A DNA stretch of 64,000 bases from Planctomycetota bacterium (GTDB lineage Bacteria; Planctomycetota; Planctomycetia; Pirellulales; Lacipirellulaceae): NCBI GenBank assembly GCA_039414355.1, contig JBCDJN010000002.1, positions 42,443 to 106,442 on the forward strand. Direction: 5' to 3'. The notes beneath the pieces were generated by a model. The model saw only the letters and a list, made by a program, of their open reading frames with translations. It was not told where the DNA came from and ran no database searches. This document shows, one piece after another, positions 9,782-26,700 of the stretch. Each line of letters opens with the position of its first letter. Positions within the stretch are counted from its first letter, which is position 1. The translations under genes were made by a program, and so were the position numbers.

Positions 9782-12700
9782 CTAAGCCGGCTTGGAACGC
9801 TCTTCGCCCGACCGCATACCGAGGTTCCCGTACCGGTGGTAGACGTGTGAGACGCTCTGCTCCTCGTGCAGCCAGAGCAGGTCAACTCGTCCGGCACCGG
9901 TGACCGGCTGATCGGCGACAAACGCCAGGCTCTCCGCCGCGGCGAGGCGGACTGGTTCAGGCACGGCCTCCGGGGTGGCGTAGCGGCAGCGCTCAACGAC
10001 GCCATCGCTTATGCCACTCGCCAACTCGTCATCGGTTTGCTGGACGAACTCGATCGCGCCTGCCCAGGGGTAGGTGGCGTCTTCGAGTCTCCCAAGGAAC
10101 GCTTCGAGGTCGCTCGGCACCTCGGGCGGCCGCGTCACTACCGCGCGGCAGTCGACTACCCGCGCCGCAATCACCCGCGCCGCGATATCCCAAGGCGTGT
10201 CCGACGGCGTGACGCGGACGTGCACGCTCCCCAGCGGCAGGTAACGCCGCTGGTTGTCCTCGCCAATCAGCCGGAAGTGATCGTGCTCCGGGGCGAACTC
10301 CTCGGCAAACGCCATGGCGTAGTCGGCGATCAAGCGCTCAAGCGGCCCTTCGCCGTTCGAAGCCTCTTCGCTGGTCGGCCGTGTCGGCTTCAGCGCGGCA
10401 AGCGGCGATAGATCGAAGCCGTCGCTGACCGGCTGGCTGGCGTCGGTCTCAGCGAGCTGCAGCACGTAGTTCGGTCCGCCTGCCTTGCAGCCGGGGCCGA
10501 CGCTGCTCTTGCCCATGCCGCCAAACGGCTGGCGGAGAACGATGGCGCCGGTCGTCGGCCGGTTGATGTAGAGGTTGCCGGCGCGGACCGTCTCGCGCCA
10601 CTGCTCGTGCTCGCGATCGTCCAGGCTCTCCAGACCCGACGTGAGCCCGTAACCGGTGCTGTTGACCACCTGCACCGCCTCGCCCAGCGTGCGGGCCGAC
10701 ATCACGCCGAGCACCGGGCCGAAGAACTCGGTGTCGTGCGTGTAGCTGCCGCGCGAGACGCCCCACTTCACGCCGGGCGCGACGAGACAGGGGTTCTCGT
10801 CCACACGCAGCCGCGGCGCCACGAGCCAAGACTCGCCCGGCTCAAGCTCTTTGAGCGCCCGCTCCAAGTCGCCCGCGGGCGGGCGGACGAGCGGGCCAAT
10901 CTTCGTCGGCAGGCTCCACGCAGACCCGACACGCAGACTCTCCACCGCGTCGGCCAGCGACTCGCGGAAGGACGGGTCTTCGTAGACCTCTTCTTCGAGA
11001 ATCAGCAGCGACGTGGCCGAGCACTTCTGGCCGCCGTGGCCGAAGGCCGAGTGCAGCACGTTCTTGATCGCCAAGTCGCGGTCGGCCATAGCGGTGACGA
11101 TGGTGGCGTTCTTGCCGCCGGTCTCGGCGAAGAGACGCATCGTGGGCTTGGCGGTCAGCATCCGCTGGGCGGTCTCGGTGCCGCCGGTGAGCACCACGGC
11201 GCCAACGCCGGGGTGAGTGACCAACCGCTGCCCAGCGCCGCCGCCGGGGCAGGGCGCCAGTTGCAAAGCCTCCCGCGGCACGCCCGCTCGCCAGAAGCAG
11301 TCGCACAGCGCGTGGGCGATGGCGACGGTGTCGCTTGCCGGCTTGAGGATCACCGTGTTGCCCGCGGCCAGCGCCGCCGCAACCCCGCCGCACGGGATAG
11401 CCAGCGGAAAGTTCCAAGGCGAGACCACCGCCACCACGCCGCGGCCGCGTGAGTTCAGCCCCGGCACGGCTTCCAGCTCTTCGGCCGACTGGCCGTAGAA
11501 GCGGCAGAAGTCGATCGCCTCGCTCACCTCGGGGTCGCTCTCCGTGAGCAGCTTGCCACCCTCGGCGAGCATCAGTCCGAGCAGGTCGCCGCGTGCGGCG
11601 GCGAGTTCGTCGGCAACACGGTTGAGCATCTGCCGCCGCTCCGCCACGGGGCGGCGCCGCCAGCCGGCGGGATCGTCCGTGGCGATCTCAACCGCGGTGT
11701 CGATGTCCTCGTCCGTGGCCAATCGATACCGGCCAACCACGACGCCGGGCCGCGAAGGATCGGTCGACTCGCGAACCTCACGGCCGTCGAAACGATCTTC
11801 TCCGCCGACAACGAGCGGAACGTCAACCGCCGCTTCGCCGTGCTTTTCTCGCCACGCGTCGAGAATCGACTCCGCCCATTCCGCGTGATGCGGCAGCGAC
11901 CAATCGGTATCGGGCTCGTTCGTGAAGCGCACTTCCTCCGGTCGTTTGCGCTCGCGGCTCGCCGGAGTCCTTCGGTCTTGTGTTCGTCTTGGCTGGTTGG
12001 TGACCGTTTGCATCGCGGCGAACGACTCGGCGAACTGCTGCTCGAGCCGCTGCCACGCGTCGCTGTCGGTGGTGATGCTGAAGGCGTGGCGGAGGAAGTT
12101 ATCAGGACCGGTGTTTTCATCGAGCCGGCGGACGAGGTAGCCGATCGCGTTGACGAAGTTCTCTTGCTGGCACGTGGGCGCGTAGAGCAGCAGGCTGGGG
12201 GCGAGCTCAAAGAGCGCGCGCCGCTGGTGGTTGGCCATGCCCTCAAGCATCTCAAACTGCACGCGATCCGCCGCGTCCTGCCGCGCGGCGGCGATCAGCC
12301 CGTAGGCCAGGTTGAACAAGTTGTGCGACGCGACCCCAAGTCTTGCCGCCGCGAGGTTCTCCGGCTTGATCGCCTCGTGCAGCATCTTCAAGAAGTTGGC
12401 GTCGGTCTCGCACTTTGACTTGTAGGGCGCCTGGGGCCATCCGTAGCTGCTGGCTTCGACCCGCTCCATCTCCATGTTGGCGCCCTTAACGATGCGCACC
12501 GTGATGGGCGCCCCGCCCGCGGCCACGCGCTGGCGGGCCCACGCGTAGAGCTCTTGCTGCACGAGGAAAGAGTCCGGCACGTACGCCTGCAGCGCGATGC
12601 CGGCAGGCGCGTCCTCCAGGCCCGGCCGATCGAGCGTCGCCCGGAACGCCTCGGCTGTGAGCCGCAGGTCGCGGTACTCCTCCATGTCTAGGTAGACAAA

Positions 12701-13462
12701 CTTGGGAACCACCACGCCATCGGGCCGCGTGAACTTGCCGCGGGCCGCGGCGCGGAAGAGCAGCTCCAGTCGATCGGCGAGCACCCCCACCGTGTGGCGA
12801 CGGGCGAGCGTGGAGATCTGCGAGTAGATCGTCGAGATCTTCACGCTGGTCACTTCGATCTCCGGCCGCTGCAGCGCCGCCAGGTAACCGTCCAGGCGCC
12901 GGCGGGCTTCGCGCTCGCCGAGCAGCGCCTCGCCGAGTTCGTTGATGTTCATCCGCAGGCCTTCGCGGTGCCGCGCGGCCAGGTGCGACGCCAGCGGCTC
13001 GGGCTCGGCGGGCAGGACGACGTTGGCCGTTTCCTGCCGCATCTTCTCCTTGACCAGCGGCATGGCGACGCCCGGCAGGTAGCCGCCGAACGACTGAAAG
13101 CCCCGCAGCATCGCCCGGTCAATAGGCGAGAAGAACCGCGGCACGCCCTGAGCGTCGAGCACGTGGATGAGTTGATCCGCCGAGCGGTCCCACGCCCGGC
13201 TGCGGAACGCCTGGTCGGTGAGCTGCATAAGCGTCGCCTTGTCGGCGGGGTGCTGCATCATGCGGTCGAGCTCCGCCTGCTGGCGACGCTCGGCGGGGGT
13301 CTGCAGGTCCGCGGCCCGGTCCTGCAGCCGGCGGGCGAGGAACATCGCCTCCTGGGCCGTTTGGGGCGGGGCGTCGGCCGAGGTATCCAGCTCAATGCCT
13401 TCGAGCAGCTTCTGAACGTCGGCCGCCAGACGTTGGGCAACCTTAGGGGCGAGCGTTGGCAT
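9782..13462 (-). CDS. putA: bifunctional proline dehydrogenase / L-glutamate gamma-semialdehyde dehydrogenase
   Basis: 1226-aa ORF. The N-terminal half has the proline dehydrogenase TIM-barrel pattern (IALQAYVPDS, VRIVKGANMEMERV, VASHNLFNLAYG, FEMLEGMANH). The C-terminal half is an aldehyde dehydrogenase (VSPWNFPLAIP, ETGGKNA, GQKCSATS). Confidence 0.95.
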   Translation of the reverse strand: MPTLAPKVAQRLAADVQKLLEGIELDTSADAPPQTAQEAMFLARRLQDRAADLQTPAERRQQAELDRMMQHPADKATLMQLTDQAFRSRAWDRSADQLIHVLDAQGVPRFFSPIDRAMLRGFQSFGGYLPGVAMPLVKEKMRQETANVVLPAEPEPLASHLAARHREGLRMNINELGEALLGEREARRRLDGYLAALQRPEIEVTSVKISTIYSQISTLARRHTVGVLADRLELLFRAAARGKFTRPDGVVVPKFVYLDMEEYRDLRLTAEAFRATLDRPGLEDAPAGIALQAYVPDSFLVQQELYAWARQRVAAGGAPITVRIVKGANMEMERVEASSYGWPQAPYKSKCETDANFLKMLHEAIKPENLAAARLGVASHNLFNLAYGLIAAARQDAADRVQFEMLEGMANHQRRALFELAPSLLLYAPTCQQENFVNAIGYLVRRLDENTGPDNFLRHAFSITTDSDAWQRLEQQFAESFAAMQTVTNQPRRTQDRRTPASRERKRPEEVRFTNEPDTDWSLPHHAEWAESILDAWREKHGEAAVDVPLVVGGEDRFDGREVRESTDPSRPGVVVGRYRLATDEDIDTAVEIATDDPAGWRRRPVAERRQMLNRVADELAAARGDLLGLMLAEGGKLLTESDPEVSEAIDFCRFYGQSAEELEAVPGLNSRGRGVVAVVSPWNFPLAIPCGGVAAALAAGNTVILKPASDTVAIAHALCDCFWRAGVPREALQLAPCPGGGAGQRLVTHPGVGAVVLTGGTETAQRMLTAKPTMRLFAETGGKNATIVTAMADRDLAIKNVLHSAFGHGGQKCSATSLLILEEEVYEDPSFRESLADAVESLRVGSAWSLPTKIGPLVRPPAGDLERALKELEPGESWLVAPRLRVDENPCLVAPGVKWGVSRGSYTHDTEFFGPVLGVMSARTLGEAVQVVNSTGYGLTSGLESLDDREHEQWRETVRAGNLYINRPTTGAIVLRQPFGGMGKSSVGPGCKAGGPNYVLQLAETDASQPVSDGFDLSPLAALKPTRPTSEEASNGEGPLERLIADYAMAFAEEFAPEHDHFRLIGEDNQRRYLPLGSVHVRVTPSDTPWDIAARVIAARVVDCRAVVTRPPEVPSDLEAFLGRLEDATYPWAGAIEFVQQTDDELASGISDGVVERCRYATPEAVPEPVRLAAAESLAFVADQPVTGAGRVDLLWLHEEQSVSHVYHRYGNLGMRSGEERSKPA

Positions 13463-13618
13463 AGCGGCGCCTCTTGGGGGCAGGTTCCTGGGCTAGCTGA
13501 CCACTCCACGCCGACGGCTCCCGCAAGCCTGCCGACGTTTGCAGTCGGGCGGCGGAAGCGAACCGAATCGGCATAAAGGAATTGTCACACCTAACCACGC
13601 CAAGGCAAAACAAGCCGT

Positions 13619-14683
13619 GTGGTTGCATGCGGCAACCCCGGCGAGAGATACTTACAGACCCCGCGCCCGCCCCGCCCGCCATCCCCCGCCTTGCCCGTGC
13701 CGCGTCGCAGCGAACAGATCGACTCGCGGACGCAGATCGTCACGCCGGAGAACATCGCGTTCGAGTACCGCACCGCCGGTCCCTTCAGCCGACTGGGCGC
13801 CTACTTGATTGACGTCATGGTGCAGTTGGTGACGGTCTTCCTCACCATCTTTGTCTTCTTCCTGTCGTACATTCTCGTCCTTACCGCGTTGCAGGTGCGT
13901 GGCGGGATGTCTTTCTGGGGTGTGATCGGCAACCTCGGCACGTTCACCGTCTTCACGCTCTGGTTCTTCATGCAGTGGTTCTACGGCGCCTACTTCGAGT
14001 ACCGCTGGAACGGCCAAACGCCCGGCAAGCGCTCGGCGAACCTCCGGGTGCTGCAGGTAGACGGCCGACCGATCACGCTCAAGCAGGCGCTGCTGCGGAA
14101 CATCGTCCGGCTGATTGACGCGTGGCCGCCGCTGCCGCTGGGGCAAGAGGTGTCCGCCGTCGTTGCGTTCCTGGCGCCCATCGCCTGCAGCACGCACCTG
14201 GTGGGCCTCACCGCGGCGTCGCTGACGCGGCGGCACCAGCGGCTGGGAGACTTGGTGTGCGGAACAATGGTGGTGGCCGAGGAACGAACGTTCGTCGGTC
14301 AGTTCGAACCGCCGGACGATGAGCGGGTCCGCGAACTCATCGAGGCGCTGCCCGCCGGCTACGTGCCGAGCCGGCCGCTGCTGCGAGCCGTTTCGCATTA
14401 CGTGGGTCGGCGGAAGTACTTCGGCCCCGCGCGGCGGCAAGAGATCGCCCGGCACGTGGGCAAGGAGCTGATCGACCGCCTGACGCTGCCGCAAGACACC
14501 GACTGCGACCTGCTGCTCTGCGCCCTCTACACCAAGGCGATCGGCGAGTCACCGCTGGCCGAGGCCGCGGCGCCGCCTGCGCAGGCCAAGTCGCTGCCGC
14601 CGGCGGAGCCGGTTGGGGCGGCCAGCGGGGCGGGCGGCAAGCAAGACGACGCAACCGACTGGGAGTCGATCCCGCTCGGCTAA
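13619..14683 (+). CDS. RDD-family membrane protein
   Basis: 354-aa ORF with an uncertain GTG start. RLGAYLIDVMVQLV opens the domain, several TM helices follow, and HQRLGDLVCGTMVVAE closes it. This is the RDD domain layout. Confidence 0.85.
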   Translation: MVACGNPGERYLQTPRPPRPPSPALPVPRRSEQIDSRTQIVTPENIAFEYRTAGPFSRLGAYLIDVMVQLVTVFLTIFVFFLSYILVLTALQVRGGMSFWGVIGNLGTFTVFTLWFFMQWFYGAYFEYRWNGQTPGKRSANLRVLQVDGRPITLKQALLRNIVRLIDAWPPLPLGQEVSAVVAFLAPIACSTHLVGLTAASLTRRHQRLGDLVCGTMVVAEERTFVGQFEPPDDERVRELIEALPAGYVPSRPLLRAVSHYVGRRKYFGPARRQEIARHVGKELIDRLTLPQDTDCDLLLCALYTKAIGESPLAEAAAPPAQAKSLPPAEPVGAASGAGGKQDDATDWESIPLG

Positions 14684-14696
14684 CCGCCAAGATGCC

Positions 14697-15722
14697 ATGA
14701 TGCAAGCTACGAAGATGATCGAGCAGCGGAGCCCGCAGTGGCAGCGGCTCGATCAGTACTGCGCGCAGCTCGAGACGAACTCGTCGGCCAAGAAACTCGG
14801 CGCCCGCAACCGCGTGGAGTTCGCGTCGCTCTATCGCTCGGCCTGCGCCGACCTCGCGCTGGCGGACGCCTACCAGTTGCCGGCCGACACGGTCCGCTAC
14901 CTGCACCACTTGGTTGGCCGGGCTCACAACCAGCTCTACCGGGTCGACACGGCGATCGACAGCGGGTGGCGCGACCGCATCTTCAAGACAACGCCGAGGA
15001 TCTTGTTCCGAGACCCGTACGTCCGGCTCGCCGCCGCAGTGTTTTGGCTGCCGTTCCTCGCGGCGATGTTCCTCTCTTCCGCCTACTCGCCCGTGCCCGA
15101 GTTCGCCGAGCAAGCAGCCGGCCGGGAGCAGTTGCTCAGCATGGAGGTCATGCACAGCGAGCCCTTCGCGGATCGCGGCCGGGCCGATGGGTTCATGGCG
15201 GGCTTCTATCTCAAGCACAACACGACCATCGGCCTCCAGTGCTTCGCGTGGGGTTTGGTCTTCGGCGTGCTGGGCATCTTTGTGACGCTCTCCAACGCCG
15301 TGCAGCTAGGCTCGGTCTTCGGTCACATGACCACAGTCGAGAACAACGATCTGTTCTTTGAGTTTGTCACCGCGCACGGCCCTTTTGAGCTTACTGCCAT
15401 TGTCCTCGCCGCGGGGGCGGGCATGAAGATGGGGTTCGCGCTGGTCGATAGCCGCGGACTGCGGAGGGTCGACTCGCTGATGCTCTCCGCGCGTGACGCC
15501 TTGCCCATCCTCGCCACGTCGGTCGCGCTCTTTGTTGGGGCCGCCTTTATCGAAGGTTTCATCTCGCCCAGCACCCTGCCTTACGAGGTCAAGGCGATGG
15601 TCGGCATGCTCTCGACCCTCGGTTTGTTGTGGTACTTTGTGGTCCTCGGCTTCACGCAGCAGGAAGATGCCGCGAAGCCCGCACCTGCCGTGCCAGCAAG
15701 CACCTCCCCGTTCGACACCTAA
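14697..15722 (+). CDS. SpoIIM-like (stage II sporulation protein M / DUF95 family) integral membrane protein
   Basis: The ATG at 14697 lies 13 nt after the RDD stop. The protein is polytopic, and FVTAHGPFELTAIVLAAGAGMKMGFALV resembles the conserved SpoIIM HG-x-xE core. Confidence 0.85.
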   Translation: MMQATKMIEQRSPQWQRLDQYCAQLETNSSAKKLGARNRVEFASLYRSACADLALADAYQLPADTVRYLHHLVGRAHNQLYRVDTAIDSGWRDRIFKTTPRILFRDPYVRLAAAVFWLPFLAAMFLSSAYSPVPEFAEQAAGREQLLSMEVMHSEPFADRGRADGFMAGFYLKHNTTIGLQCFAWGLVFGVLGIFVTLSNAVQLGSVFGHMTTVENNDLFFEFVTAHGPFELTAIVLAAGAGMKMGFALVDSRGLRRVDSLMLSARDALPILATSVALFVGAAFIEGFISPSTLPYEVKAMVGMLSTLGLLWYFVVLGFTQQEDAAKPAPAVPASTSPFDT

Positions 15723-15799
15723 CGGCCCGCCAAGCGTCCGCCCAACTTCCGGCTAGCACCAACACAACTAGCGCCTAGCGCCTCCCACCTCGCGCCTCC

Positions 15800-16630
15800 A
15801 TGAACCTCGACGCCACCAAGATCGCCATCCGCGAACGATCGTTCGGCGAGATCATGGACTTGGCGCTCGTGGTCATCCGCCAGCGGTTCGGCCCGCTGCT
15901 GGTGCTGCTCGCCGTAGGCGCCGCGCCGTGGGCGTTGTTGAATCACTTTCTGACGAGCAGATTGATCCTCGACAGCATCGGAGACGAGGAAGCGGTGTAC
16001 GTCTTCTGGCGAGTGCTGCTTGTGGTGCTGGAAACGCCGCTGGCGACGGCGCCCATCACGCTTTACCTGGGGCAGGTCACCTTCGGCGGCCGGGGCGACG
16101 CCCGGAAGATCGCTGGCGACTTCTTCCGAAGCCTGCCGCAGATGATCATGCTGCAAGGCTTGGCCCGGGTGCTCACCGCGATCCCCTTCGTCACGCTGTT
16201 TATGCCCTACGTGATGTGGCCGTACCTCAGCGAGCTGATCCTGCTGGAACGCAACCCCATGTTCGGCGGCAAGACCAAAGACGGCCGGCCCCGGCTCAAC
16301 ACCCGACGGCGGAGCAAGAACCTGCACCGGAACTCGGGCGGTGACCTCTTCAGCCGGTGGCTGCTGTCGGCCGCCGCGGGGGTGATGCTGATTGTGATCG
16401 GCATCGTTGGCGTGCAGGCGTTGGCCCGGACCTTGTTCGCGGTAGATATCTCGATCATTCAAACGCTGCTGTACGTCTTCCCGGCTATCACGTGGGTGGT
16501 GGTGGGTTACTTCACCGTGGTCCGGTTCTTGGCGTACCTCGACCTGCGGATCCGCCGCGAGGGGTGGGAAGTGGAACTCGCCCTCCGCGCCCAAGCGGCC
16601 CGGCTCGCGTCCGTGGGGGCGGTGGCATGA
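15800..16630 (+). CDS. polytopic membrane protein of the MoxR module (no assignable family)
   Basis: 276-aa ORF with at least 5 hydrophobic helices and a C-terminal YLDLRIRREGWEVEL motif. Its stop overlaps the next start (ATGA at 16627-16630). Confidence 0.75.
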   Translation: MNLDATKIAIRERSFGEIMDLALVVIRQRFGPLLVLLAVGAAPWALLNHFLTSRLILDSIGDEEAVYVFWRVLLVVLETPLATAPITLYLGQVTFGGRGDARKIAGDFFRSLPQMIMLQGLARVLTAIPFVTLFMPYVMWPYLSELILLERNPMFGGKTKDGRPRLNTRRRSKNLHRNSGGDLFSRWLLSAAAGVMLIVIGIVGVQALARTLFAVDISIIQTLLYVFPAITWVVVGYFTVVRFLAYLDLRIRREGWEVELALRAQAARLASVGAVA

Positions 16631-17400
16631 CCGGCTGGAAGCTGCTGCCGCCGATTCTCGCCCTGGCCGCGTTGCTACCGTCGGCCGCCGGGGGGGAGCT
16701 GTCCGACCCGGAAACGGCCGTCGAAGCGGGCCGCCAAGCGCTCGACGCCCAATGGGACCTCGAGTGGTACGACGACGAGGCCGACGCCTTCGAGCTGATC
16801 GACACCCGCCAGCGTGACTACGACTGGGAGTGGCTGAGCTGGATCGGCGATTTCTTTACGTGGCTCAGCTCCTTCAACCTGGACTTTGACTTCGCCAGTC
16901 TGCTGCGGCTGCTGGCGTGGCTGGTGATCCTCGCCGTCGCCGCCTGGTTGATCTACTCCATTGTCAAGGCGTACCAGCGGGTCGAACTCTACAGCGCCGA
17001 AAAGGTTGAGACCGAAGACGACGGGCGCACGCATATCGAGCGTGTCGAGGCGTTGCCCGTGGCCGTTGAGCGCCGCGTGGGCGACCTGCTGGGCGAGGCC
17101 CGCCGGCTGCGGTCGGCTGGCGACCTGACGATGGCGGTCGTCTACCTCTACAGCCACCAACTGGTCCAGCTGGACCGCGCCGGGATGATCCGCCTGATCA
17201 AAGGAAAGACCAACCGCCAGTACCTGCGTGAGCTCAAGCGCGCGTCGCCGCCGGAAACGTTGGCCACAACGCTGAGCGACACGATGCTGTTGTTCGAGCG
17301 ATCGTTCTTCGGCGCGCACCCGCCGGACGAAGGCAAGCTCGACCGGTGCTTCGCCGCCACCGAGGCGTTTGAGCTGGCCGCGAAGGGAGAGCAGGCGTGA
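16627..17400 (+). CDS. DUF4129-like membrane-anchored protein
   Basis: The ATG at 16627 overlaps the upstream stop. The protein has a signal/anchor, a TM helix (LLRLLAWLVILAVAAWLIYSIV) and a C-terminal helical part (AVVYLYSHQLVQLDRAGMIRLIKGKTNRQYLRELK...LLFERSFFG) resembling DUF4129. Confidence 0.8.
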   Translation: MTGWKLLPPILALAALLPSAAGGELSDPETAVEAGRQALDAQWDLEWYDDEADAFELIDTRQRDYDWEWLSWIGDFFTWLSSFNLDFDFASLLRLLAWLVILAVAAWLIYSIVKAYQRVELYSAEKVETEDDGRTHIERVEALPVAVERRVGDLLGEARRLRSAGDLTMAVVYLYSHQLVQLDRAGMIRLIKGKTNRQYLRELKRASPPETLATTLSDTMLLFERSFFGAHPPDEGKLDRCFAATEAFELAAKGEQA

Positions 17401-18608
17401 TCGAAGGAGGAAGGCAGAAGGCGGAGGGCGGAACGACGCGCAGGCGACGCGGCAACACCTGCGCGCGCAACCACCGGCGACCCGCCTTCCGCCTTCCACC
17501 CTCCGCCCTCGCGTTGCTTCTACTGCTGCCGCTGTGCGGGTGCTTTCCCGGTTACCTCGAAGAGCAGTACGGCCGGAGGAGCGGCGTTTGGTCGGACAGC
17601 ATCAACGGGACCGCGGTCCTTGGCAAGATGATCGAGAAAGCCGGGCACAAGGTCCGGTCGGTCGATCGCCTCTACCCGAAGGTCGGCAACGCCGACGTGA
17701 TCGTTTGGTTCTGCGACGACTTCGGCGCCCCCTCGGCCGAGGCCCGTCAGTGGCTCGACGATTGGCTGCTGCTCAGCGACGAGGCGAAGACCCTGGTCTT
17801 TGTCACCCGCGATTACGAGGCGGGCGCCCTGTACTGGTCCGAGATGCAGAAGACCGCCCCGGCGGGCCTGCAGAAGACCCTCGGCAATGAGCGGCGGCAA
17901 TCGCAAACGCGGTTCAACCAGTACCGCGGCGGCGCGCCGGTCACCGACGCCGCCGGCGACTGGTTCACCACCGACCGCCGCACAACAACGCGCACCATCC
18001 AGCAGCTCTCCGGCCCGTGGGCCAAGGGCGTCGACGCCAGCAAGACGCAAATCGAACACCGCGCCTACCTCACGCCGAGCGACGAGGCGGACTTCCTGCT
18101 CGCCGACGAGCGCGGCCATCCGTTGGCGAGCGAGATCGTCTACTCGGGTGAGTCTTGGCAGACGAACGTGAAAGACTCACGGGTCGTGATGATCGAGAAC
18201 GGCGCGTTCCTGCTCAACGGCGCCCTCGTCAACAAAGAACACCGCAAGCTCGCGGGCAGGCTCGTGGATCACCTTGGGCCGCCGAAGCTCAACGTCGTGT
18301 TCCTGGAGTCGGACAGCGACCCGCCGGTGCTGGCGGACGATCCCTCCGTGGGCCCCGCCAGCGCGTTCAAGCACCTCACGCTATGGCCCATTGGCGCGCC
18401 GATCGTGCAGGCCCTGGCGCTCGGCGTGGCGTACGCGGCGTTCCGCTGGCCGATCTTCGGCCGGCCCCGCCGAGGGGAAGAAGCCTCGCTGACCGACTTC
18501 GGCCGGCACGTCGAAGCGGTGGGCCGGCTCCTCGCCGCCACCCGCGACCGCACGTATGCTGACGCCCAACTGCGGGCGTACTTCCAGGCGGCGCGGGAGA
18601 AGGACTAA
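17397..18608 (+). CDS. DUF4350-like lipoprotein
   Basis: The GTG at 17397 overlaps the upstream stop (GTGA). The N-terminus is Arg-rich and is followed by a lipobox-like LLLLLPLCGC. The body (VIVWFCDDFGAPS...TLVFVTRDYEAG) resembles DUF4350. Confidence 0.8.
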   Translation: MIEGGRQKAEGGTTRRRRGNTCARNHRRPAFRLPPSALALLLLLPLCGCFPGYLEEQYGRRSGVWSDSINGTAVLGKMIEKAGHKVRSVDRLYPKVGNADVIVWFCDDFGAPSAEARQWLDDWLLLSDEAKTLVFVTRDYEAGALYWSEMQKTAPAGLQKTLGNERRQSQTRFNQYRGGAPVTDAAGDWFTTDRRTTTRTIQQLSGPWAKGVDASKTQIEHRAYLTPSDEADFLLADERGHPLASEIVYSGESWQTNVKDSRVVMIENGAFLLNGALVNKEHRKLAGRLVDHLGPPKLNVVFLESDSDPPVLADDPSVGPASAFKHLTLWPIGAPIVQALALGVAYAAFRWPIFGRPRRGEEASLTDFGRHVEAVGRLLAATRDRTYADAQLRAYFQAAREKD

Positions 18609-18658
18609 AGGATTATTGACCGCGGAGTTCGCCGGGGACGCAGAGGACGGGTGACCGT

Positions 18659-19141
18659 GTGTTGATCGACAATCCCTATGCATCGCCAGCAACCGGTGCG
18701 AATCCGGTCGAGGTGAAGACCGGAGTAGCTTGGCTACTGGCGCCGACTGGCGTGTCGAGCGTCGTCCTTGCCGCGTGCGTGTATGCGCATTTTGGGGCAT
18801 GCGGCACACATGTGCCTGACGATGTCGTTCCGATCGGCCTGTTGATCCTGCTTTGGTTTCACGTGATTGTCGCGGGCATTTACGTCGGTGCCTTAACAGT
18901 CGCACTCGCGTTATTTGGAGCCCTCACCAACGCAATCCAGTACCGTCGCTGGACAGCGACGGTACTCGCACCAATAGTCGCTCTCGTGTGGCTTCCGATT
19001 GCGTCTTGGATGACCCCGACTGAGCTCTTAGCGTCTGCAACCGCCGTTCCAATACTCCTTGCTGGCGTCACCTTCGATCTTTGCGCAGTCTACTCCACGT
19101 CCTCTGCGACCTCCGCGGTTAATCAACAACCCAAACAATAG
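18659..19141 (+). CDS. small four-helix membrane protein with N-terminal NPYASP motif
   Basis: 160-aa ORF with a GTG start, beginning VLIDNPYASPATG and containing four hydrophobic helices. Its stop lies 2 nt before the moxR ATG. It is visibly more A/T-rich than its neighbours. Confidence 0.6.
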   Translation: MLIDNPYASPATGANPVEVKTGVAWLLAPTGVSSVVLAACVYAHFGACGTHVPDDVVPIGLLILLWFHVIVAGIYVGALTVALALFGALTNAIQYRRWTATVLAPIVALVWLPIASWMTPTELLASATAVPILLAGVTFDLCAVYSTSSATSAVNQQPKQ

Positions 19142-19143
19142 AC

Positions 19144-20199
19144 ATGAGCGACACCCCCGAAGAGCCCACGCTGCCCGAGGCGGCGATCGTCCCCGATGAG
19201 CCGCAGCCGCCGCTGGCAGCCGAGGCCCTCGTGACGGACGCTGAGCCGACGCCGCTGCAGCGGCTGTACGACGCCATCACCGCCGAGGTGGCCAAGATCT
19301 ACGTCGGCCAGGAGGAGCTGGTGCTCTCGACGCTGGTCGCCCTCTTCTCGGGCGGGCACGTGCTGATTGAAAGCGTGCCCGGCTTGGGCAAGACGCTCTT
19401 TGTTCGCACGCTGGGCAAGGTGCTGGGCTGCAAGTTCGGCCGCATCCAGTTCACGGCGGACCTGATGCCGTCGGACATCACCGGGGCGCCGATCTTCAAC
19501 CTCAAGACGCAGGAGTTCACCTTCCGCCCCGGCCCGGTCTTCACGCAGCTCTTGCTCGCCGACGAGATCAACCGCTCGCCCGCCAAGACGCACGCCGCGC
19601 TGCTGGAGATCATGCAGGAACGCCGCGTGACGGTTGAGAACGACACGCACAAGCTCGACCCGCCGTTCCTGGTCATGGCGACGCAGAACCCGGTGGAGAG
19701 CGAGGGCACGTACAACCTGCCCGAGGCGCAGCTCGACCGCTTCATGTTCAAGGTGATGGTCGATTACCCCTCCGCCGAGGAAGAGGCCCGAGTGCTCAAG
19801 GAGCACAGCCGGCAGGTGGACATCGACAAGCGACTGGCCGAGGAGGTGCGCACCGTCACGTCGCCCGAGCAGGTCATCAAGGCGACCCAGCTCTGCGGCA
19901 AGGTGCGGGTGGAAGAGAAGCTGATCGACTACATCAACCAGCTGGTCCGCCAAACGAGGAGCTGGCCGACGCTGCACTTGGGCGCCTCGCCGCGGGCGGG
20001 GATTGCGTTGATGCAGGGCGCGAGGACGCTGGCCGCCTTCAACGGCCGCGACTACGCCGTGCCCGACGACGTCGCCGAGATCGCCCTGCCCGCGCTCCGC
20101 CACCGCGTGGTGCTCACCGCCGAGGCCGAGGTGGAAGGCCGCGACGTCGACCAGGTGCTGAACGAGCTGATCCGCACGGTTGAAGTCCCGCGGATGTGA
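19144..20199 (+). CDS. MoxR-family AAA+ ATPase
   Basis: 351-aa ORF. Walker A is GHVLIESVPGLGKT and Walker B is LLLADEINR. FLVMATQNPVESEGTYNLPEAQLDRF and ASPRAGIAL are typical MoxR/AAA_3 signatures. Confidence 0.95.
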   Translation: MSDTPEEPTLPEAAIVPDEPQPPLAAEALVTDAEPTPLQRLYDAITAEVAKIYVGQEELVLSTLVALFSGGHVLIESVPGLGKTLFVRTLGKVLGCKFGRIQFTADLMPSDITGAPIFNLKTQEFTFRPGPVFTQLLLADEINRSPAKTHAALLEIMQERRVTVENDTHKLDPPFLVMATQNPVESEGTYNLPEAQLDRFMFKVMVDYPSAEEEARVLKEHSRQVDIDKRLAEEVRTVTSPEQVIKATQLCGKVRVEEKLIDYINQLVRQTRSWPTLHLGASPRAGIALMQGARTLAAFNGRDYAVPDDVAEIALPALRHRVVLTAEAEVEGRDVDQVLNELIRTVEVPRM

Positions 20200-20279
20200 C
20201 AAGCGCACGCAACAAGCTCCCGAAATAGCCTCACGCCTCGGCGCCTTTGCGTTAACGAACCAAGCGTCCCCCAACAGCC

Positions 20280-21737
20280 GTGATTACCCTCTACTGCCTC
20301 GCCGCCTTCATCCTCGGCCTCGTCTTGCTGGCGTGGCTTGGCAGGGTGTACCCCGATCGGGCGTTGGTGACCGCCATGCTCGCGCCGACGGCGCTCTCGG
20401 CCATGCTGATCGCACTGCCGACGCTCTGGCCGGTGGTGGTGGCCGTGGACGTGCTGCTGCTGGTTGTGGTGCTGATCGATCTGGCGTCGCTCGCGCGGGA
20501 GGCGTCTTTCCAGGCGCAGCGGTCGGTCGGCCTGATCGCGTCGCTGGGGCAGCAGCACCCGGTGGAACTGACCGTCACCAACCGTTCCGGGCGCCGGCAG
20601 CCCATCCGTGTGAAGGACGACGTCCCCGAGGGGATGACCGCCGAGCCAGAGGACTTCCGCGTGGTGCTCTCGCCGATGAGCCGGTCGGTGCTGCGGTACC
20701 GAGTGCGGCCGCAGGGGCGGGGCGAGTTCTTCCTGGAGCGCGTTTACCTCCGGGTCGGCAGCCGGTGGGGGTTCTGGCAGCGGCAGCTCGAACTCCCCGT
20801 CCGCAGCCGCATCAACGTCTACCCGGACATGAAGCAACTGGGCGAGTACGCCGTGCTGGCCCGCACCAACCGGCTGAGCCTGATGGGGCTCCGGCGGACG
20901 CGGCGGATCGGGCAGGACAACGAGTTCGAGCGTCTCCGAGACTACACGCTGGACGATAACTTCAAGCACATCGATTGGCGGAGCACCGCCCGCCGCAACA
21001 AGCTCACGGTCAAGGACTTCCAGGCCAACCAGAGCCAGCGGATCATGTTCCTGGTGGACTGCGGCCGGATGATGACCGGCGAAGCGGCCGGCGTGAGCCT
21101 GCTGGATCACGCCCTGAACGCGATGCTGATGCTGGGCTACGTTGCGCTCCGGAGGAGCGATCAGGTGGGCCTGCTCTGCTTCTCCGACCGCGTGCTCTCG
21201 TTCACCCCGCCCAAAGGCGGGAGCGAGCAAACCAGCCGGCTGCTGCACGCCGCGTACAACCGCTTCCCGGAGATGGTGGAGTCTCGCTACGACGAGGCGT
21301 TCTTGCACCTCGCCACGCATGTGCGGAAGCGGACGCTCGTGGTGCTGATCACCAACGTTGTTGACGAAGTAAACGCGACCCAGGTCCGGCGGCACCTGGC
21401 GGCCGTCAACGGCCGGCACCTGCCGCTGGCGGTGCTGCTGCGGGACCATGCGCTGTTCGACGCGGTGGCCCAAGCGGAACCGGCGTACGCTTCGCTTGCC
21501 GGATCGGGCAACGATACGGCAGCGTCAACCTTTCAGCAGCAGCCGGCGCCGGGCGTGGGGCTTTCGAGCGAGAAGCTCTTCCGCGCAGCGGCCGCCGCCG
21601 AGGTGCTAAGCTGGCGCCGGCGCGTTTTGGCCGACTTAGAGACCAGCGGTGTGCTGCTGGTCGACGAGTTTGCCGAAGACCTCACCGCGCCGTTGGTCAA
21701 CCGTTACCTGGAAGCCAAAGCGCGTCACCTGCTCTGA
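20280..21737 (+). CDS. DUF58 (VWA-like) protein, MoxR partner
   Basis: 485-aa ORF with N-terminal TM helices. DNEFERLRDYTLDDNFKHIDWRSTARRNKLTVKDFQANQSQRIMFLVDCGRMM is the DUF58 core. Confidence 0.9.
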   Translation: MITLYCLAAFILGLVLLAWLGRVYPDRALVTAMLAPTALSAMLIALPTLWPVVVAVDVLLLVVVLIDLASLAREASFQAQRSVGLIASLGQQHPVELTVTNRSGRRQPIRVKDDVPEGMTAEPEDFRVVLSPMSRSVLRYRVRPQGRGEFFLERVYLRVGSRWGFWQRQLELPVRSRINVYPDMKQLGEYAVLARTNRLSLMGLRRTRRIGQDNEFERLRDYTLDDNFKHIDWRSTARRNKLTVKDFQANQSQRIMFLVDCGRMMTGEAAGVSLLDHALNAMLMLGYVALRRSDQVGLLCFSDRVLSFTPPKGGSEQTSRLLHAAYNRFPEMVESRYDEAFLHLATHVRKRTLVVLITNVVDEVNATQVRRHLAAVNGRHLPLAVLLRDHALFDAVAQAEPAYASLAGSGNDTAASTFQQQPAPGVGLSSEKLFRAAAAAEVLSWRRRVLADLETSGVLLVDEFAEDLTAPLVNRYLEAKARHLL

Positions 21738-21741
21738 AGAC

Positions 21742-22389
21742 TCAAACGGTCAAAGGGATTGACTGCTCAGCAAACTCGCTTGCCCAGCTAGACACAGTGT
21801 TTGAGTCGTCACTGTCAAACAGGCGACAAGCAAGACGCGCCCTGCGTATCACGCCCTTCTCAAGAGACTGCGAGAACAGACTCCAACGCGATTCTCCGAT
21901 GCCTCCCTGCAAGAACCGCCACTTATGGGAGGCCTCGCGTTGATCACTGGGGTGCACAACCTCACACCAGTCGCCTCCTCCAAGCTGCTGAACGCGCACG
22001 ACGCGCTCTTCGGACATTCGGGGGGCGTAGTCGCTATCGACACCACCGCATGCGCTGACCCGAGAGAGCACGAGGATTACAGGATGCGAGTCGAGCAAAT
22101 CGGTTTCCACAGAAACGATGAACTGCAAGCCTACGCCGTCGCCACGCCAGTACACCTCAGTACGGAACGGAAAAGCGTCGCATGGACCGTAGCTGGCGAC
22201 GAGGTCGGTGCCGCGCGCGTAGTAATCAACTAACGGAAACATCGCGTCTTCGACTGCCGGACGGACGCCAAATGCCTGGACGGCGCTGCCCAGCCGAACC
22301 CCGTCGCCGGGGTGGGAAAGGTCTATCCGTGCGCCTAGCGCGAGACATTCGGCCTTGACCCCATCGATCCGCCAGGAGCAATCAGTCAA
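21742..22389 (-). CDS. hypothetical protein (compositionally atypical)
   Basis: The long ORF runs to 22512, but residues 19-32 of that ORF are the translation of a strong terminator hairpin. I therefore place the start downstream, at TTG 22389. The ATG at 22242 is an alternative. No recognisable domain, and the codons are A/T-richer. Confidence 0.5.
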   Translation of the reverse strand: MTDCSWRIDGVKAECLALGARIDLSHPGDGVRLGSAVQAFGVRPAVEDAMFPLVDYYARGTDLVASYGPCDAFPFRTEVYWRGDGVGLQFIVSVETDLLDSHPVILVLSRVSACGGVDSDYAPRMSEERVVRVQQLGGGDWCEVVHPSDQREASHKWRFLQGGIGESRWSLFSQSLEKGVIRRARLACRLFDSDDSNTVSSWASEFAEQSIPLTV

Positions 22390-22417
22390 AACGGCATAGA
22401 GCGGCGTTAGAAGGCAC

Positions 22418-22457
22418 AAAAAAACCCCGCCGAACACCCGAGGGTGTTGCGACGGGG
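22418..22457 (-). terminator. intrinsic (Rho-independent) terminator on the minus strand
   Basis: The minus-strand RNA reads CCCCGUCGCAACACCC-UC-GGGUGUUCGGCGGGG, about 14-15 bp of stem with one bulge, followed by UUUUUUU (A-run 22418-22424 on the plus strand). Confidence 0.7.
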
Positions 22458-22785
22458 CCGGAACAGAGAAGAGGCCAGAGTCGCTTGCAAAGGGATAACT
22501 GGTATTAGGCAATCGCCTACCGCCGATCGGCGGCTGTCAAGCTCCCCCGGTGTTCCGCACGGTGGGACATACGGGATGTTAGCAGAACGCGAAGTCGTGT
22601 CCAACCATTTGGTGAGAAAACCACAAACGCACCGCCGAACTCCACATTTCGCGAAACGCCGCGCAATGACCGCGGCGTGTCTGCGGCGATCGATCGCGGT
22701 TATGCTCTTCGGTTCGCCAACGGGTCGGCCGGTTATTTCCCATCTCGACCCAAATGCCGCTTGAAAGACGTCTCAGGAGCCTCCG

Positions 22786-23589: not shown

Positions 23590-23783
23590 CCGCGGGCCGC
23601 AAGTTTGGTCGGTCGCCCCCCTGCGGGTAAGATGGGCGTAGGTGTTGCGCGTGAGGGCCAGCCAGCCCAACCCTCCTCTCTTCTCTCCCCAATCGGGTCG
23701 CCCCCCTCTGCTTCACCGGCTTGCCGCCCTCTCCACGCATCAACGCAGCCGGCCGCGTGCCGACTTGCCCGTGCCCACCCGTC

Positions 23784-26700
23784 ATGCCCACCCCACCAAC
23801 AGCCCAAGCCGCGGCGCCCGGTCGACGCCGACCCGCGCCGGCGTTTTGGCTGGCTTGTTGCTTGGCGCTGGCGTTGGGTGGCGAGTGGTCGCGTGCCCAA
23901 CTTCCCGGAACGCCGCCGACCGAACCCCCTACAACGGAAGCCCAGCCCACAGAAGCCCAGCCAACCGAAGCCCCGCTGACCGAGACGCCGCCCTCGCCCG
24001 AGTCGGACCAGCCGGCTGCCAGTCGCGATCGCCAAGCCGCAGAGGACGGGCTGCCGCGGCCTTCGGGTCCCGACACCACGATCTGGATCGGCGGAAACGG
24101 AACGCCTCGCCCCGTCGTCGGGCTTTCGTACGACGAACTGCTGAAGGCGTGGCGGGCGCTGCAGCAACTCGATACCGGACCGAAACTGCCGGCCGTGCTG
24201 CGTGATCGGATCGACCTGAGCGGAACCGTGGAAGGCGATCGTGTCCGAATAACAGCACGCTACGAGTTCACCCTCTCCGCCGATGGCCACGCCGAGGCGC
24301 CGCTCGGCCTTGCCGGCGCGGTGCTGGTTGACGACCCCAAGATCACGGGAGAGTCGCCCAAGGGCCAGCACGTTGACTACCGCCAGGGAGAAGGTGGCTT
24401 CGTAGCCTGGCTTCACGGCAAGGCGGGTGAACGCCGCGTGGTTGAATTGCCGCTGCTCGTGCCGCTGACGCAAGACGATCAACAGACGGTGCTGCGGCTG
24501 AACCTTCCGCGGGCGACGCGGTCCGAGGTTGTCGTGGAGTCGGCCCGGCGGCTCACGCAGACCTTTGTTACCGGCGCGCCGATGCTCGACACAGAAGCGG
24601 CCGACAGCGGTGGCTCACGCCTCCGCGTGCGGGGCGGCGTTGGCATGGTGCAGCTTGGGTGGCGGAGTAAGACCGACACGGTCGCCGCGCCCGCTACCGT
24701 GCTGACCGCGACGAGCGAGATCGCTTGCCGGGTAGACGGAACGAGCGTCCGCAGCCGAGCGGAAGTCACCGTGAGCAGCTACGGCGGGATGATCGAGCGC
24801 TTCCGCGTCCGCCTGCCCGCGGGGTCGTCGCTGCGTCCACGCGCCGAGGCGGAGGGGCAGCCGCGCGTCACGATGCTCGAGGCGGGCGATCGATCGCAAC
24901 GGGTCTGCCTGGTATCGCTGCCTTCGCCGACCAATGAGCCGGTATCGATCACGTTGGAAACCGACCAAACGCTGCCGCTCGCCCCGGAGTCGGCGGCCGA
25001 CCTCGGGGGGTTCGAGGTCCTCGGCGTCGCTCGCCAGCGTGGCGTCGTCGCCATCGAAGTTGCCGAAGGTTGGCGGGCGCAGCTCGGCGGGCTCGACCGG
25101 GTCGCAAAGCTACCGCCGGAGGCTCTGCCGGCCTCGCTTCAGACGCCGCGTCCCACGGCGGCGGTTGAGTTCTTCGGGCAGCCTTTCCGGCTAGGAATCC
25201 GCGTGCAGCGGCAGCCGGTGCGGACCGAGGTCGCGACACGCTATCTCCTCATCCTTCGCCCCGACTCTGCCGAGCTGGGGGTCGCGATCGATTATCGAAT
25301 CACCGGGCAGCGGCGCGGCGCGCTCGTGATCGACTTGGCCGACTGGGCCGGTGCGGAGGTGCTATCGCCCTCGTTGACCGGCGCCGTCGGGACCGATGCC
25401 ATTGCCCTTAGCGGCGACGACGACAGCGAGCTGAGCCTCGCGCTGCCGGCCGACGCGGGCCCCAACGGCACGGCGGAGTTCACCCTGAAGGTCCCGCTAT
25501 CGATCGACAAAGAGCAACTGCAACTGAAGCTGCCCACAGCCCAAGCCACGCTTCATTCCGGTTCGGAGCTGCTGGTGGTGGCAGACCCCTCGCTCGAACT
25601 GACGCCCGACGCCGAGCGGCTGCAGCGGATGCGCGCCACTGCCGTGACCGCCGATACACGAGACCCGCGGGACCCCACCGGTCTGCAGTCATTCCGGTTC
25701 CTTGGTTCGGGGGTTGGCGACGTGTTTGCCGCCCGGGTCCGCCGCCGGCCCGCCGAGGCAACCGTCGCCGTCGGCAGCCAGGTCCGCGTGGGCGAGCAAG
25801 CGACCTTGGTCAAGCAAACCTTCGACTACGACCTACGTCATGCTGCCTTTAACGAACTGCGATTCTCGGTTCCATCGGGAGCGATCGAGTCGTCAACCGT
25901 CGCCTTCAACCTCACGTCGCCCGCTGGAGACCAACCCGGCCCGACTCCGGCCAGGCGTCTTGAGTTCCAGGCCGCCGAGCCTGACGAGGAAGACGCGAAC
26001 CGTGAGGTCTCCGTCGCGCTGCCGCGCCCCTGGATCGGCGCGTGCCGAATCGAGGCTGAGTTCTCATTGCCGGCGGCCCTCGACTCGCTTGAGCGGGGCG
26101 AGCCGATCAGCGCCCCGCTGATTTCACCAATCGGCAGCGAGATCGCGTCGTCTCGCGTCGTCGCCCGCGCCGAAGACGGCTCGCCGTTGACGCTTGGCGA
26201 CAACGCGGCTTCGTGGTCGTCGGCCGAAGACCGTGACGAGGAAGACGGAGCGCTGGTGGCGACGGGCGTCGGGGAAGCGTGGGTGTTGCCGCTGCGCAGG
26301 GCGGACCCACAAGCAAGGACGGCTGAGGCGATTCTCATCCGATCCGCCCGATGGGAAACCTGGATCACACCCACACAGACCCAGCAGAGCGCTGAGTTCA
26401 TCGCGCAGACGTCCGCCGAGGAGGCGACGATTGAGATCGATCCGTCGCTAGCGGACACCGCGGTCGAAGTGACCATCGATGGCCGAACGGCAGATCGGTA
26501 CCGCCGCACCGGGAATCGTTTGATTGTGCGTCTGACCGATGAGGGCAATCCGCCGGACCGTTCGCGACCGATCAGGCACAACATCGCGCTCCGGTACTTC
26601 GAACCGGGTCAGTCGAGCCCAAACTCGGTTGCGTGGCGCCCACCGCGGATGGAGGGCGATTACGTGCTGGCCACCACTTCGTGGGACATCGTGCTCCCCG

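Follow-up and report, generated by a model that had tools for sequence, protein, structure and literature searches.

A conserved seven-gene MoxR/DUF58 membrane module in a planctomycete: apparent kinship with the arc2 antagonism resistance genes and interruption by an orphan reading frame

Introduction

The MoxR ATPases belong to the most widespread groups of AAA+ protein, and few of their clients are known. Here, we describe a module of seven co-directional genes, encoding in order RDD, SpoIIM-like, unnamed-family (g3), DUF4129, DUF4350, MoxR and DUF58 proteins, which extends over positions 13619-21737 of a 64,000-nucleotide (nt) stretch of planctomycete DNA (hereafter the window; positions 42,443 to 106,442 of contig JBCDJN010000002.1, GenBank assembly GCA_039414355.1). 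We give a probability of roughly 0.55 to the reading that this is a membrane-protection machine of the same kind as those encoded by arc2A-G of Pseudomonas aeruginosa and by the Rv3689-Rv3695 cluster of Mycobacterium tuberculosis, here split by an insert of 535 bp in which an orphan open reading frame (ORF) lies. The seven-gene module is one of the commonest contexts in which MoxR genes occur, and the sole copy with a phenotype is Pseudomonas arc2. Any proposed mechanism must explain three features: the occurrence of one system across three bacterial groups, the place of g3 in the core and its fusion to DUF4129, and a DUF58 protein that lacks the metal ion-dependent adhesion site (MIDAS). Together, these three constraints point to concrete interaction tests.

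Distribution and conservation of the module

Among planctomycetes, the order RDD, SpoIIM, g3, DUF4129, DUF4350, MoxR and DUF58 is identical in all five loci with full flanks (L001, L005, L012, L013 and L014), whose sources range from the same genus to distant relatives; shorter loci give partial copies. The locus in the window is an ordinary planctomycete copy, the only local peculiarity of which is the orphan ORF (g6, where g1 to g8 number the eight ORFs in order), and the module is single-copy in the source genome. That genome also has further MoxR (AAA_3) and DUF58 genes, at least six of each, which lie in other contexts and score far lower on the module profiles (sites in Table 1). Occurrence of g3 is patchy: within its order, a g3 profile finds the gene in 55 of 81 genomes and whole families lack it, and the same profile, which is narrow, detects it in 10 of the 151 genomes that sample the phylum, so the module would seem to be common but dispensable, an accessory rather than an essential system as judged from sequence.

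Outside the Planctomycetota, plasmid and chromid records searched by tblastn with the SpoIIM-like protein yielded copies in Catenovulum (Gammaproteobacteria) with the window's gene order, as well as rearranged copies in Rhizobium (DUF4129-DUF4350-MoxR-DUF58-SpoIIM-RDD). A scan of a genome collection, seeded by a three-sequence alignment of Catenovulum and planctomycete SpoIIM proteins, returned at least 563 relatives; the best 80, all from Proteobacteria, were taken, and their loci were annotated with seven home-built, twice-iterated family hidden Markov models (HMMs). Of these 80 loci, 65 contain all seven families, arranged as in the window, and the remaining 15 are interrupted by contig ends.

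In Actinobacteria, a Pfam scan of an unannotated Nonomuraea record places RDD, SpoIIM, DUF58, MoxR and DUF4350 inside 6 kb. The original prediction, made from the window's sequence alone, had pointed to a similar set around M. tuberculosis moxR2 (Rv3692), and that neighborhood is real: an orthologue table lists Rv3689 (membrane protein), Rv3691 (DUF4350), Rv3692 (MoxR), Rv3693 (DUF58), Rv3694c (SpoIIM) and Rv3695 (RDD) (PMC8191103). These genes and their M. chelonae and M. abscessus orthologues comprise the same families as the module and are co-regulated, the M. chelonae orthologues of the Rv3689-Rv3695 set falling together by 6-8 log2 units (PMC8191103). Actinobacterial order differs from that of the window, SpoIIM and RDD coming after DUF4129-DUF4350-MoxR-DUF58 and part of the set lying on the other strand, and identity to the module is low (approximately 47-52% for MoxR and 25-29% for the others). 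A g3 profile built without actinobacterial sequences nevertheless gives weak matches to an ORF upstream of the DUF4129/DUF4350 genes in Nonomuraea (E = 1.6e-4, with an adjoining frame that weakly matches the DUF4129 profile) and in Nocardia (E = 2.8e-3), both with the same terminal motifs as g3, so the "membrane protein" of the mycobacterial cluster probably belongs to the g3 family. In a variant from Nocardia farcinica (L018, 1735-5830 of NZ_LN868939.1), MoxR-DUF58-SpoIIM is directly preceded by a DUF4407 gene and by a frame with DUF4129; Pfam passes no DUF4350 there, in high-G+C DNA whose ORF calling is ambiguous. On these comparisons, the planctomycete, proteobacterial and actinobacterial sets are the same system. 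The prediction of a conserved, co-directional MoxR/DUF58 membrane module is supported, and direct finds of the set come from Nonomuraea, Rhizobium and Catenovulum as well as from 80 proteobacterial genomes.

Gene order across the loci suggests that the module may travel as three blocks: RDD with SpoIIM, g3 with DUF4129 and DUF4350, and MoxR with DUF58. The RDD/SpoIIM-like pair is found in every complete locus, and g1 is the first gene of the module in planctomycete loci with full flanks and in proteobacterial loci. A Bernardetia sp. plasmid (L019, 9001-10854 of NZ_CP147018.1) carries only this pair, with no MoxR or DUF58 gene within 9 kb; its "SpoIIM" protein of 617 residues is approximately twice the normal length and is encoded divergently from the RDD gene. 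On a metagenome contig (ERZ21831265 ctg81147l; L003, 7189-9892), the g3-DUF4129-DUF4350 triad stands alone between glycoside hydrolase genes and an ATP synthase operon, with no RDD, SpoIIM, MoxR or DUF58 gene nearby, which suggests that the triad is a separable sub-module.

Probable correspondence with arc2 of Pseudomonas aeruginosa

Antagonism resistance cluster 2, arc2A-G (PA4317-23), consists of seven uncharacterised genes, including those for a MoxR-like ATPase and a VWF-domain protein, and these genes co-occur in the Pseudomonadaceae and Xanthomonadaceae (Ting 2022, eLife, PMC8926400). Mutants in arc2 lose defence against type VI secretion (T6SS) attack by Burkholderia thailandensis, and the defect is partly relieved by deletion of the gene for the pore-forming effector ColA; killing of competitors is unaffected by arc2 loss, and the phenotype is thus defensive (PMC8926400). 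The original prediction had described the module as being of unknown function with no assigned substrate, a description that is now outdated, since the arc2 counterpart defends against the T6SS pore-former ColA; this defines a phenotype only, not a mechanism or a direct substrate.

Correspondence between arc2 and the module was assessed by matching the peptides encoded by the primers of Ting 2022, at no more than one mismatch, against 7,699 ORFs of the collected loci. The peptide FGFYIMN comes from the upstream-arm primer used to delete PA4320; 50 of its 50 matches fall in module SpoIIM ORFs, approximately 159 residues from the end. The PA4323 upstream-arm primer encodes TQNPIE, the MoxR sensor-1 motif (54 of 54 matches, approximately 172 residues from the end), and an internal tagging primer of PA4323 encodes EFHQLR, a DUF58 hallmark (14 of 15 matches), which in module DUF58s lies 242 residues from the end. 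These positions fit cloning arms of 0.5-0.7 kb. The primers therefore put a module-type SpoIIM just upstream of PA4320 and a MoxR protein just before PA4323, within which the DUF58 hallmark itself lies, a pattern that fits the order SpoIIM (PA4319), g3/DUF4129 (PA4320), DUF4350 (PA4321), MoxR (PA4322) and DUF58 (PA4323); two upstream RDD genes, as found in Tahibacter and four other loci, would complete the seven.

The probable equivalence of the module and arc2 is well supported by the three primer peptides, the gene count and the synteny, taken as a whole and not gene by gene; our literature search found no paper naming three or more of PA4317-22. The arc2 cluster is a seven-gene operon whose last two genes, as in the module, encode the MoxR and VWF/DUF58 proteins, and its order is that of the proteobacterial loci, which share the order of the window. 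There are also differences. In Proteobacteria, g3 and DUF4129 are usually fused into a single gene and the RDD gene is doubled in some lineages, whereas the window has separate g3 and DUF4129 genes and one RDD gene, as well as the orphan ORF g6 beyond the arc2 set; Gac/Rsm control and the T6SS/ColA phenotype have so far been described only in Pseudomonas.

The g3 family and its fusion to DUF4129

The copy in the window had been predicted to carry two extra membrane genes. This holds for g6, a genome-specific orphan, and fails for g3, which is present in every complete module copy examined and is fused to DUF4129 in most Gammaproteobacteria; on this evidence, g3 is a core member of the module and not an addition to it. 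Neither protein has a match in Pfam, NCBIfam or PADLOC. Homologues of g3 number 794 at E <= 0.001, those listed being 45-63% identical, and the protein is better conserved than the DUF4129 protein. Its invariant motifs are an N-terminal IAIRER..E..DL, ELILLERNP and a C-terminal YLDLRIRREGWEVEL. An AlphaFold2 model of g3 is all-helical and polytopic (predicted local distance difference test score 86.7, predicted template modelling score (pTM) 0.84), and it has no fold match in the PDB at E <= 0.001.

We detected 69 single-frame g3-DUF4129 fusions of approximately 500-545 residues, distributed over most gammaproteobacterial loci, and in the 40 listed of these 69 both HMMs are covered end to end. 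In Catenovulum, for example, an annotated coding sequence of 515 residues replaces g3 and the DUF4129 gene; in hhalign, the g3 profile aligns with its first 245 residues at a probability of 84% and E = 8e-6, with agreement of the N- and C-terminal motifs. The DUF4129 profile is weak in hhalign (E = 0.011 for the Catenovulum fusion's C-terminal half, E = 0.0011 for the Nonomuraea ORF), unlike the iterated HMMs, which cover the DUF4129 domain fully. Because they are naturally fused, g3 and the DUF4129 protein may be expected to act as one unit. As with g3 alone, a model of the natural fusion has no PDB fold match at E <= 0.001.

By hydropathy and alignment, the DUF4129 protein (g4) of the window begins with a helix that is either a signal or an anchor and continues with an acidic periplasmic segment of short length (AVEAGR..L...W..PWYD), one transmembrane (TM) helix and the cytoplasmic DUF4129 domain, whose motifs are GKTNRQYLRE ... 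FE..FFG. Related arrangements are found in the MoxR-DUF58-TgpA operons of Pseudomonas, in which the transglutaminase TgpA has a C-terminal DUF4129, and in the Bat-type MoxR-DUF58-BatA-E operons of Bacteroidota, both of which contain the MoxR and DUF58 pair. The window module differs from these in that transglutaminase, BatA/BatB VWA proteins and TPR proteins are all absent from it. The presence of DUF4129 on TgpA, a membrane partner, suggests by analogy that the domain could be a general docking module for MoxR/DUF58.

The RDD, SpoIIM-like and DUF4350 subunits

For the RDD protein (g1), the true start may lie at 13691 or 13697, as relatives align from approximately residue 26-31. The SpoIIM-like protein (g2) is alignable over its full length across phyla, with the motif MAGFYLKHN at residue 167, and its orthologues are annotated DUF8413 plus SpoIIM. 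The membrane domain is shared with SpoIIM of the Bacillus subtilis DMP engulfment complex; module-type SpoIIM proteins differ in having an extra N-terminal cytoplasmic domain (DUF8413), and the source organism of the window is not a spore-former.

This resemblance opens the question of whether the module is a scaffold for remodelling of the cell wall or envelope, in which the SpoIIM-like protein would recruit peptidoglycan hydrolases to act on the wall or septum, by analogy with B. subtilis. We consider this very improbable. The domain match is strong (2e-29), and SpoIIM does scaffold SpoIID and SpoIIP in Bacillus; however, SpoIIM homologues are widespread in non-sporulating organisms and archaea (PMC5898192), and no hydrolase is kept in the module in any lineage examined. 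Moreover, SpoIIP was not found in the source genome (90% complete), and the single SpoIID-domain gene of that genome lies on another contig, unlinked to the module.

For the DUF4350-type protein (g5), hydropathy indicates an N-terminal signal, a periplasmic domain of approximately 270 residues and a C-terminal TM helix, after which comes a conserved cytoplasmic tail (FGR...H.A.G); LPLCG|C near the N-terminus is a possible lipobox. The start of g5 is ambiguous: translation from the GTG at 17397 gives 403 residues (Logan contig), and the NCBI record has 364, which fits a TTG at 17514. The Arg-rich first ~40 residues of the longer form are not kept in relatives. Because of this ambiguity, the second 4-nt overlap (GTGA) is uncertain here; relatives do have the overlap. 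The DUF4350 protein has no sequence relative in the PDB.

Archaeal DUF4350 proteins (arCOG01314) resemble GldG and flavodoxin-like domains by HHpred and are linked with MoxR (COG0714) and vWA genes and with surface proteins, in what was termed a "predicted secretion or membrane remodelling complex"; bacterial SpoIIM homologues likewise adjoin vWA and COG0714 genes (Makarova, Galperin, Koonin 2015, PMC5898192). The archaeal sets share with the module the core of DUF4350, MoxR and DUF58/vWA, with a DUF4350 that bears a signal peptide and is anchored by a TM helix at its C-terminus. They differ in adding Ig-like and S-layer proteins, and RDD, SpoIIM and g3 are not described as members (PMC5898192). 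A secretion or surface-assembly system is thus an alternative to be weighed, in which MoxR/DUF58 would assemble or gate a conduit or platform built from the GldG-like DUF4350 and the polytopic proteins. Both the archaeal linkage to surface proteins and the membrane or periplasm-facing character of most components, as judged by hydropathy, speak for it. We regard it as unlikely all the same: no gene for a cargo-like secreted or S-layer protein is kept beside the bacterial module, the flanks of which vary by lineage, and loss of arc2 has a defensive phenotype and leaves competitor killing unaffected.

The MoxR ATPase and its DUF58 partner

The MoxR protein (g7) retains intact catalytic motifs, namely the P-loop SVPGLGKT, Walker B LLLADE, sensor-1 ATQNP and LDRF; among solved structures, 2R44 is the closest to it (2.9e-77). 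On the module MoxR profile the protein reaches 500 bits, compared with no more than 381 bits for the genome's other MoxR paralogues. The DUF58 protein (g8), encoded directly after MoxR, has by hydropathy two or three N-terminal TM helices and a cytoplasmic DUF58/VWA domain, and it has no sequence relative in the PDB. Its MIDAS serines are replaced: the window protein reads VDCGRMM where VWA adaptors of the CbbO/NorD type have the canonical DxSxS. Across 81 aligned module DUF58s, the sequence at the MIDAS position is D[CS]GR[RM]M, with D and G present in 73 of 73 ungapped sequences, whereas three paralogous DUF58s of the same genome keep DxSxSM (DVSESM, DASLSM and DTSRSM). Lacking DxSxS, the module DUF58 is unlikely to bind clients through a metal.

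The pairs NorQ/NorD, CoxD/CoxE and CbbQ/CbbO are the models for MoxR-VWA proteins that act in maturation. By extension, MoxR/DUF58 might be a dedicated chaperone that activates, or inserts a cofactor in, one membrane enzyme or transporter, with the other five proteins as client or scaffold. The RDD protein could indeed be a transporter-like client, and MoxR-VWA pairs are generally chaperone-like, releasing inhibition or inserting metal cofactors (PMC8926400). We nonetheless hold a maturation role to be quite unlikely, because the module DUF58 lacks the MIDAS serines by which CbbO-type adaptors grip clients, the five membrane partners have no catalytic or cofactor-binding domain recognisable with Pfam or NCBIfam, and no enzyme gene is kept alongside the module.

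A working model for membrane protection

We propose that the module most likely encodes an inner-membrane complex that uses ATP for remodelling. The six membrane proteins would form one complex in the inner membrane, to which the VWA-like domain of DUF58 would recruit the cytoplasmic MoxR hexamer; the docking site would probably comprise the cytoplasmic DUF4129 domain together with charged cytoplasmic motifs of g3. Hydrolysis of ATP could then remodel or extract membrane-inserted proteins and so keep the inner membrane intact after damage, with the periplasmic DUF4350 domain facing outward. For the planctomycete studied here, this would mean an accessory membrane-protection system and not an essential biogenesis machine.

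Several considerations weigh against this model. Nothing links planctomycetes to T6SS attack. The protection that arc2 confers is partial and effector-specific (PMC8926400), and arc2 was not among the genes recovered when other aggressor species were used in a later (2025) screen. The M. chelonae cluster moves with glycerol-uptake genes (PMC8191103), no obvious fit to a defence role. With respect to the correspondence between genes, we infer the identities of PA4317, PA4318, PA4320 and PA4321 from synteny. Finally, the model of the natural g3-DUF4129 fusion has a pTM of 0.56, and inter-domain packing is not fixed in it.

A broader version of membrane protection, which we put forward as a rather doubtful extension, is that the module would be a general ATP-driven remover of foreign or mis-inserted pore-formers, forming part of innate defence from planctomycetes to pseudomonads and mycobacteria, with g6 as a newly recruited subunit or regulator.

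The orphan reading frame and a dispersed repeat

In same-genus relatives, only ~20-230 nt separate the aligned ends of the DUF4350 and MoxR genes, compared with the 535 bp of genome-specific DNA found here. The insert contains g6, whose G+C content of 57.3% is among the lowest 1.3% of genome windows. We consider g6 to be probably a real membrane-protein gene, recently acquired or young, that lies outside the conserved machine. Its three-base periodicity is strong (G 0.40 at position 1, C+T 0.72 at position 2), four of its hydrophobic stretches are of TM length, and its grand average of hydropathy is +0.95, six standard deviations above shuffled sequences (-0.21 +/- 0.19), none of 5000 of which was as high. 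The probability that such a frame would remain open by chance is 0.004.

These properties stand against a less favoured but still plausible alternative, in which the frame is no gene and the insert is non-coding, open by chance, and ends in a repeat that lies upstream of start codons. That alternative draws on the failure to find a homologue in the searched sets: there was no match in 40 related genomes and none (0 matches) in a full HMMER pass over 1.84 billion representative proteins. The protein is also absent from the public protein collection under five start choices, so it has probably never been called. Furthermore, its G+C content at third codon positions is 0.61, compared with 0.86-0.94 in the seven neighbours, and its last codons copy a dispersed intergenic repeat. 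An origin of g6 as a copy of a mobile element was considered and rejected, as only the last ~45 nt recur in the genome.

The repeat (..CTCTGCGTCCTCTGCGACCTCCGCGGTTAATC) has 20 copies in the genome at no more than three mismatches. In 7 of these 20, an ATG-initiated ORF of at least 150 residues starts no more than 20 nt downstream, as compared with 4.1% of random positions (p = 1e-5); a first, looser test of whether the repeat precedes ORFs was uninformative (11 of 20 vs 48% of random positions). The repeat may be a leader, a translation-initiation element or a promoter-proximal element of the source genome, and, since it tends to precede ORFs, the MoxR gene may possess an initiation signal separate from that of the genes before it, downstream of the insert.

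Locus layout and neighboring genes

The source assembly is 5.3 Mb in 239 contigs and approximately 90% complete, and named homologues of its proteins put it in the Planctomycetota, close to Pirellulimonas and Aeoliella. All eight plus-strand ORFs that had been predicted in the window were confirmed, with exact coordinates (Table 1) and exact junctions of +13, +77, -4 (ATGA), -4 (GTGA), +50, +2 and +80 nt. The family calls were also borne out, by Pfam for RDD, SpoIIM, DUF4129, MoxR and DUF58 and, given a weak Pfam match, by orthology for DUF4350. None of the eight products matched the anti-phage defence models of PADLOC-DB 2.0.

Table 1. Features of the module locus in the window, and related sites elsewhere in the source genome
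Feature	Position	Strand	Remarks
putA	9782-13462	-	Pro_dh + Aldedh; upstream neighbor
Divergent intergenic region putA/g1	13463-13618
g1, RDD-family membrane protein	13619-14683	+	Pfam RDD 6.4e-21; ~160-residue cytoplasmic C-terminal extension
g2, SpoIIM-like polytopic membrane protein	14697-15722	+	Pfam SpoIIM 2.2e-29; ~105-residue cytoplasmic N-terminal domain
g3, polytopic membrane protein	15800-16630	+	Unnamed family; no Pfam/NCBIfam match
g4, DUF4129 protein	16627-17400	+	Pfam DUF4129 1.9e-7, residues 175-245; ATGA 4-nt overlap with g3
g5, DUF4350-type protein	17397-18608	+	Pfam DUF4350 20.5 bits, under the 30.4 cut-off; orthologues carry the domain
Insert between DUF4350 and MoxR genes	18609-19143		535 bp, low G+C; genome-specific
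g6, orphan ORF	18659-19141	+	160 residues, ~4 predicted TM helices; coding-like statistics, no homologue
Dispersed ~32-nt repeat copy (..TCC(A/G)CGTCCTCTGCGACCTCCGCGGTTAATC)	19093-19124	+	19 nt before MoxR start codon; encodes g6 C-terminus
g7, MoxR ATPase	19144-20199	+	AAA_3 1.6e-62, AAA_lid_2 8.5e-24; cytoplasmic, no TM anchor
g8, DUF58 protein	20280-21737	+	DUF58 8.6e-27, weak VWA_2 5.6e-5
Other MoxR/DUF58 sites in the genome	C20:41523-44211, C118:3579-6154, C98:53-2618, C6:44628-49517, C158, C110
Other repeat copies (examples)	C118:5205, C71:1618, C91:19554, C133:9876, C28:42426(-), C68:10478

The module is flanked by strand switches, with putA divergent upstream, a neighbor that is also present in the relative L005, and a convergent minus-strand ORF downstream. 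The operon promoter is presumably located in the putA/g1 intergenic region; a consensus promoter and terminator scan of the module remained at chance level and called no promoter in that region, and Rfam and tRNA scans were empty, with no Rfam match there.

Three further observations concern the surroundings. The convergent ORF at the module end (21742-22512, minus strand, 256 residues) has no Pfam match and lies in DNA of lower G+C content (~61%). Upstream of putA, and not kept beside the module in the relatives examined, is a gene for a Ser/Thr protein kinase of 709 residues (5180-7309, plus strand). Downstream, with no Pfam match at E <= 0.001, two very large adjacent ORFs on the plus strand, at 23721-27218 and 27248-33661, encode products of 1165 and 2137 residues.

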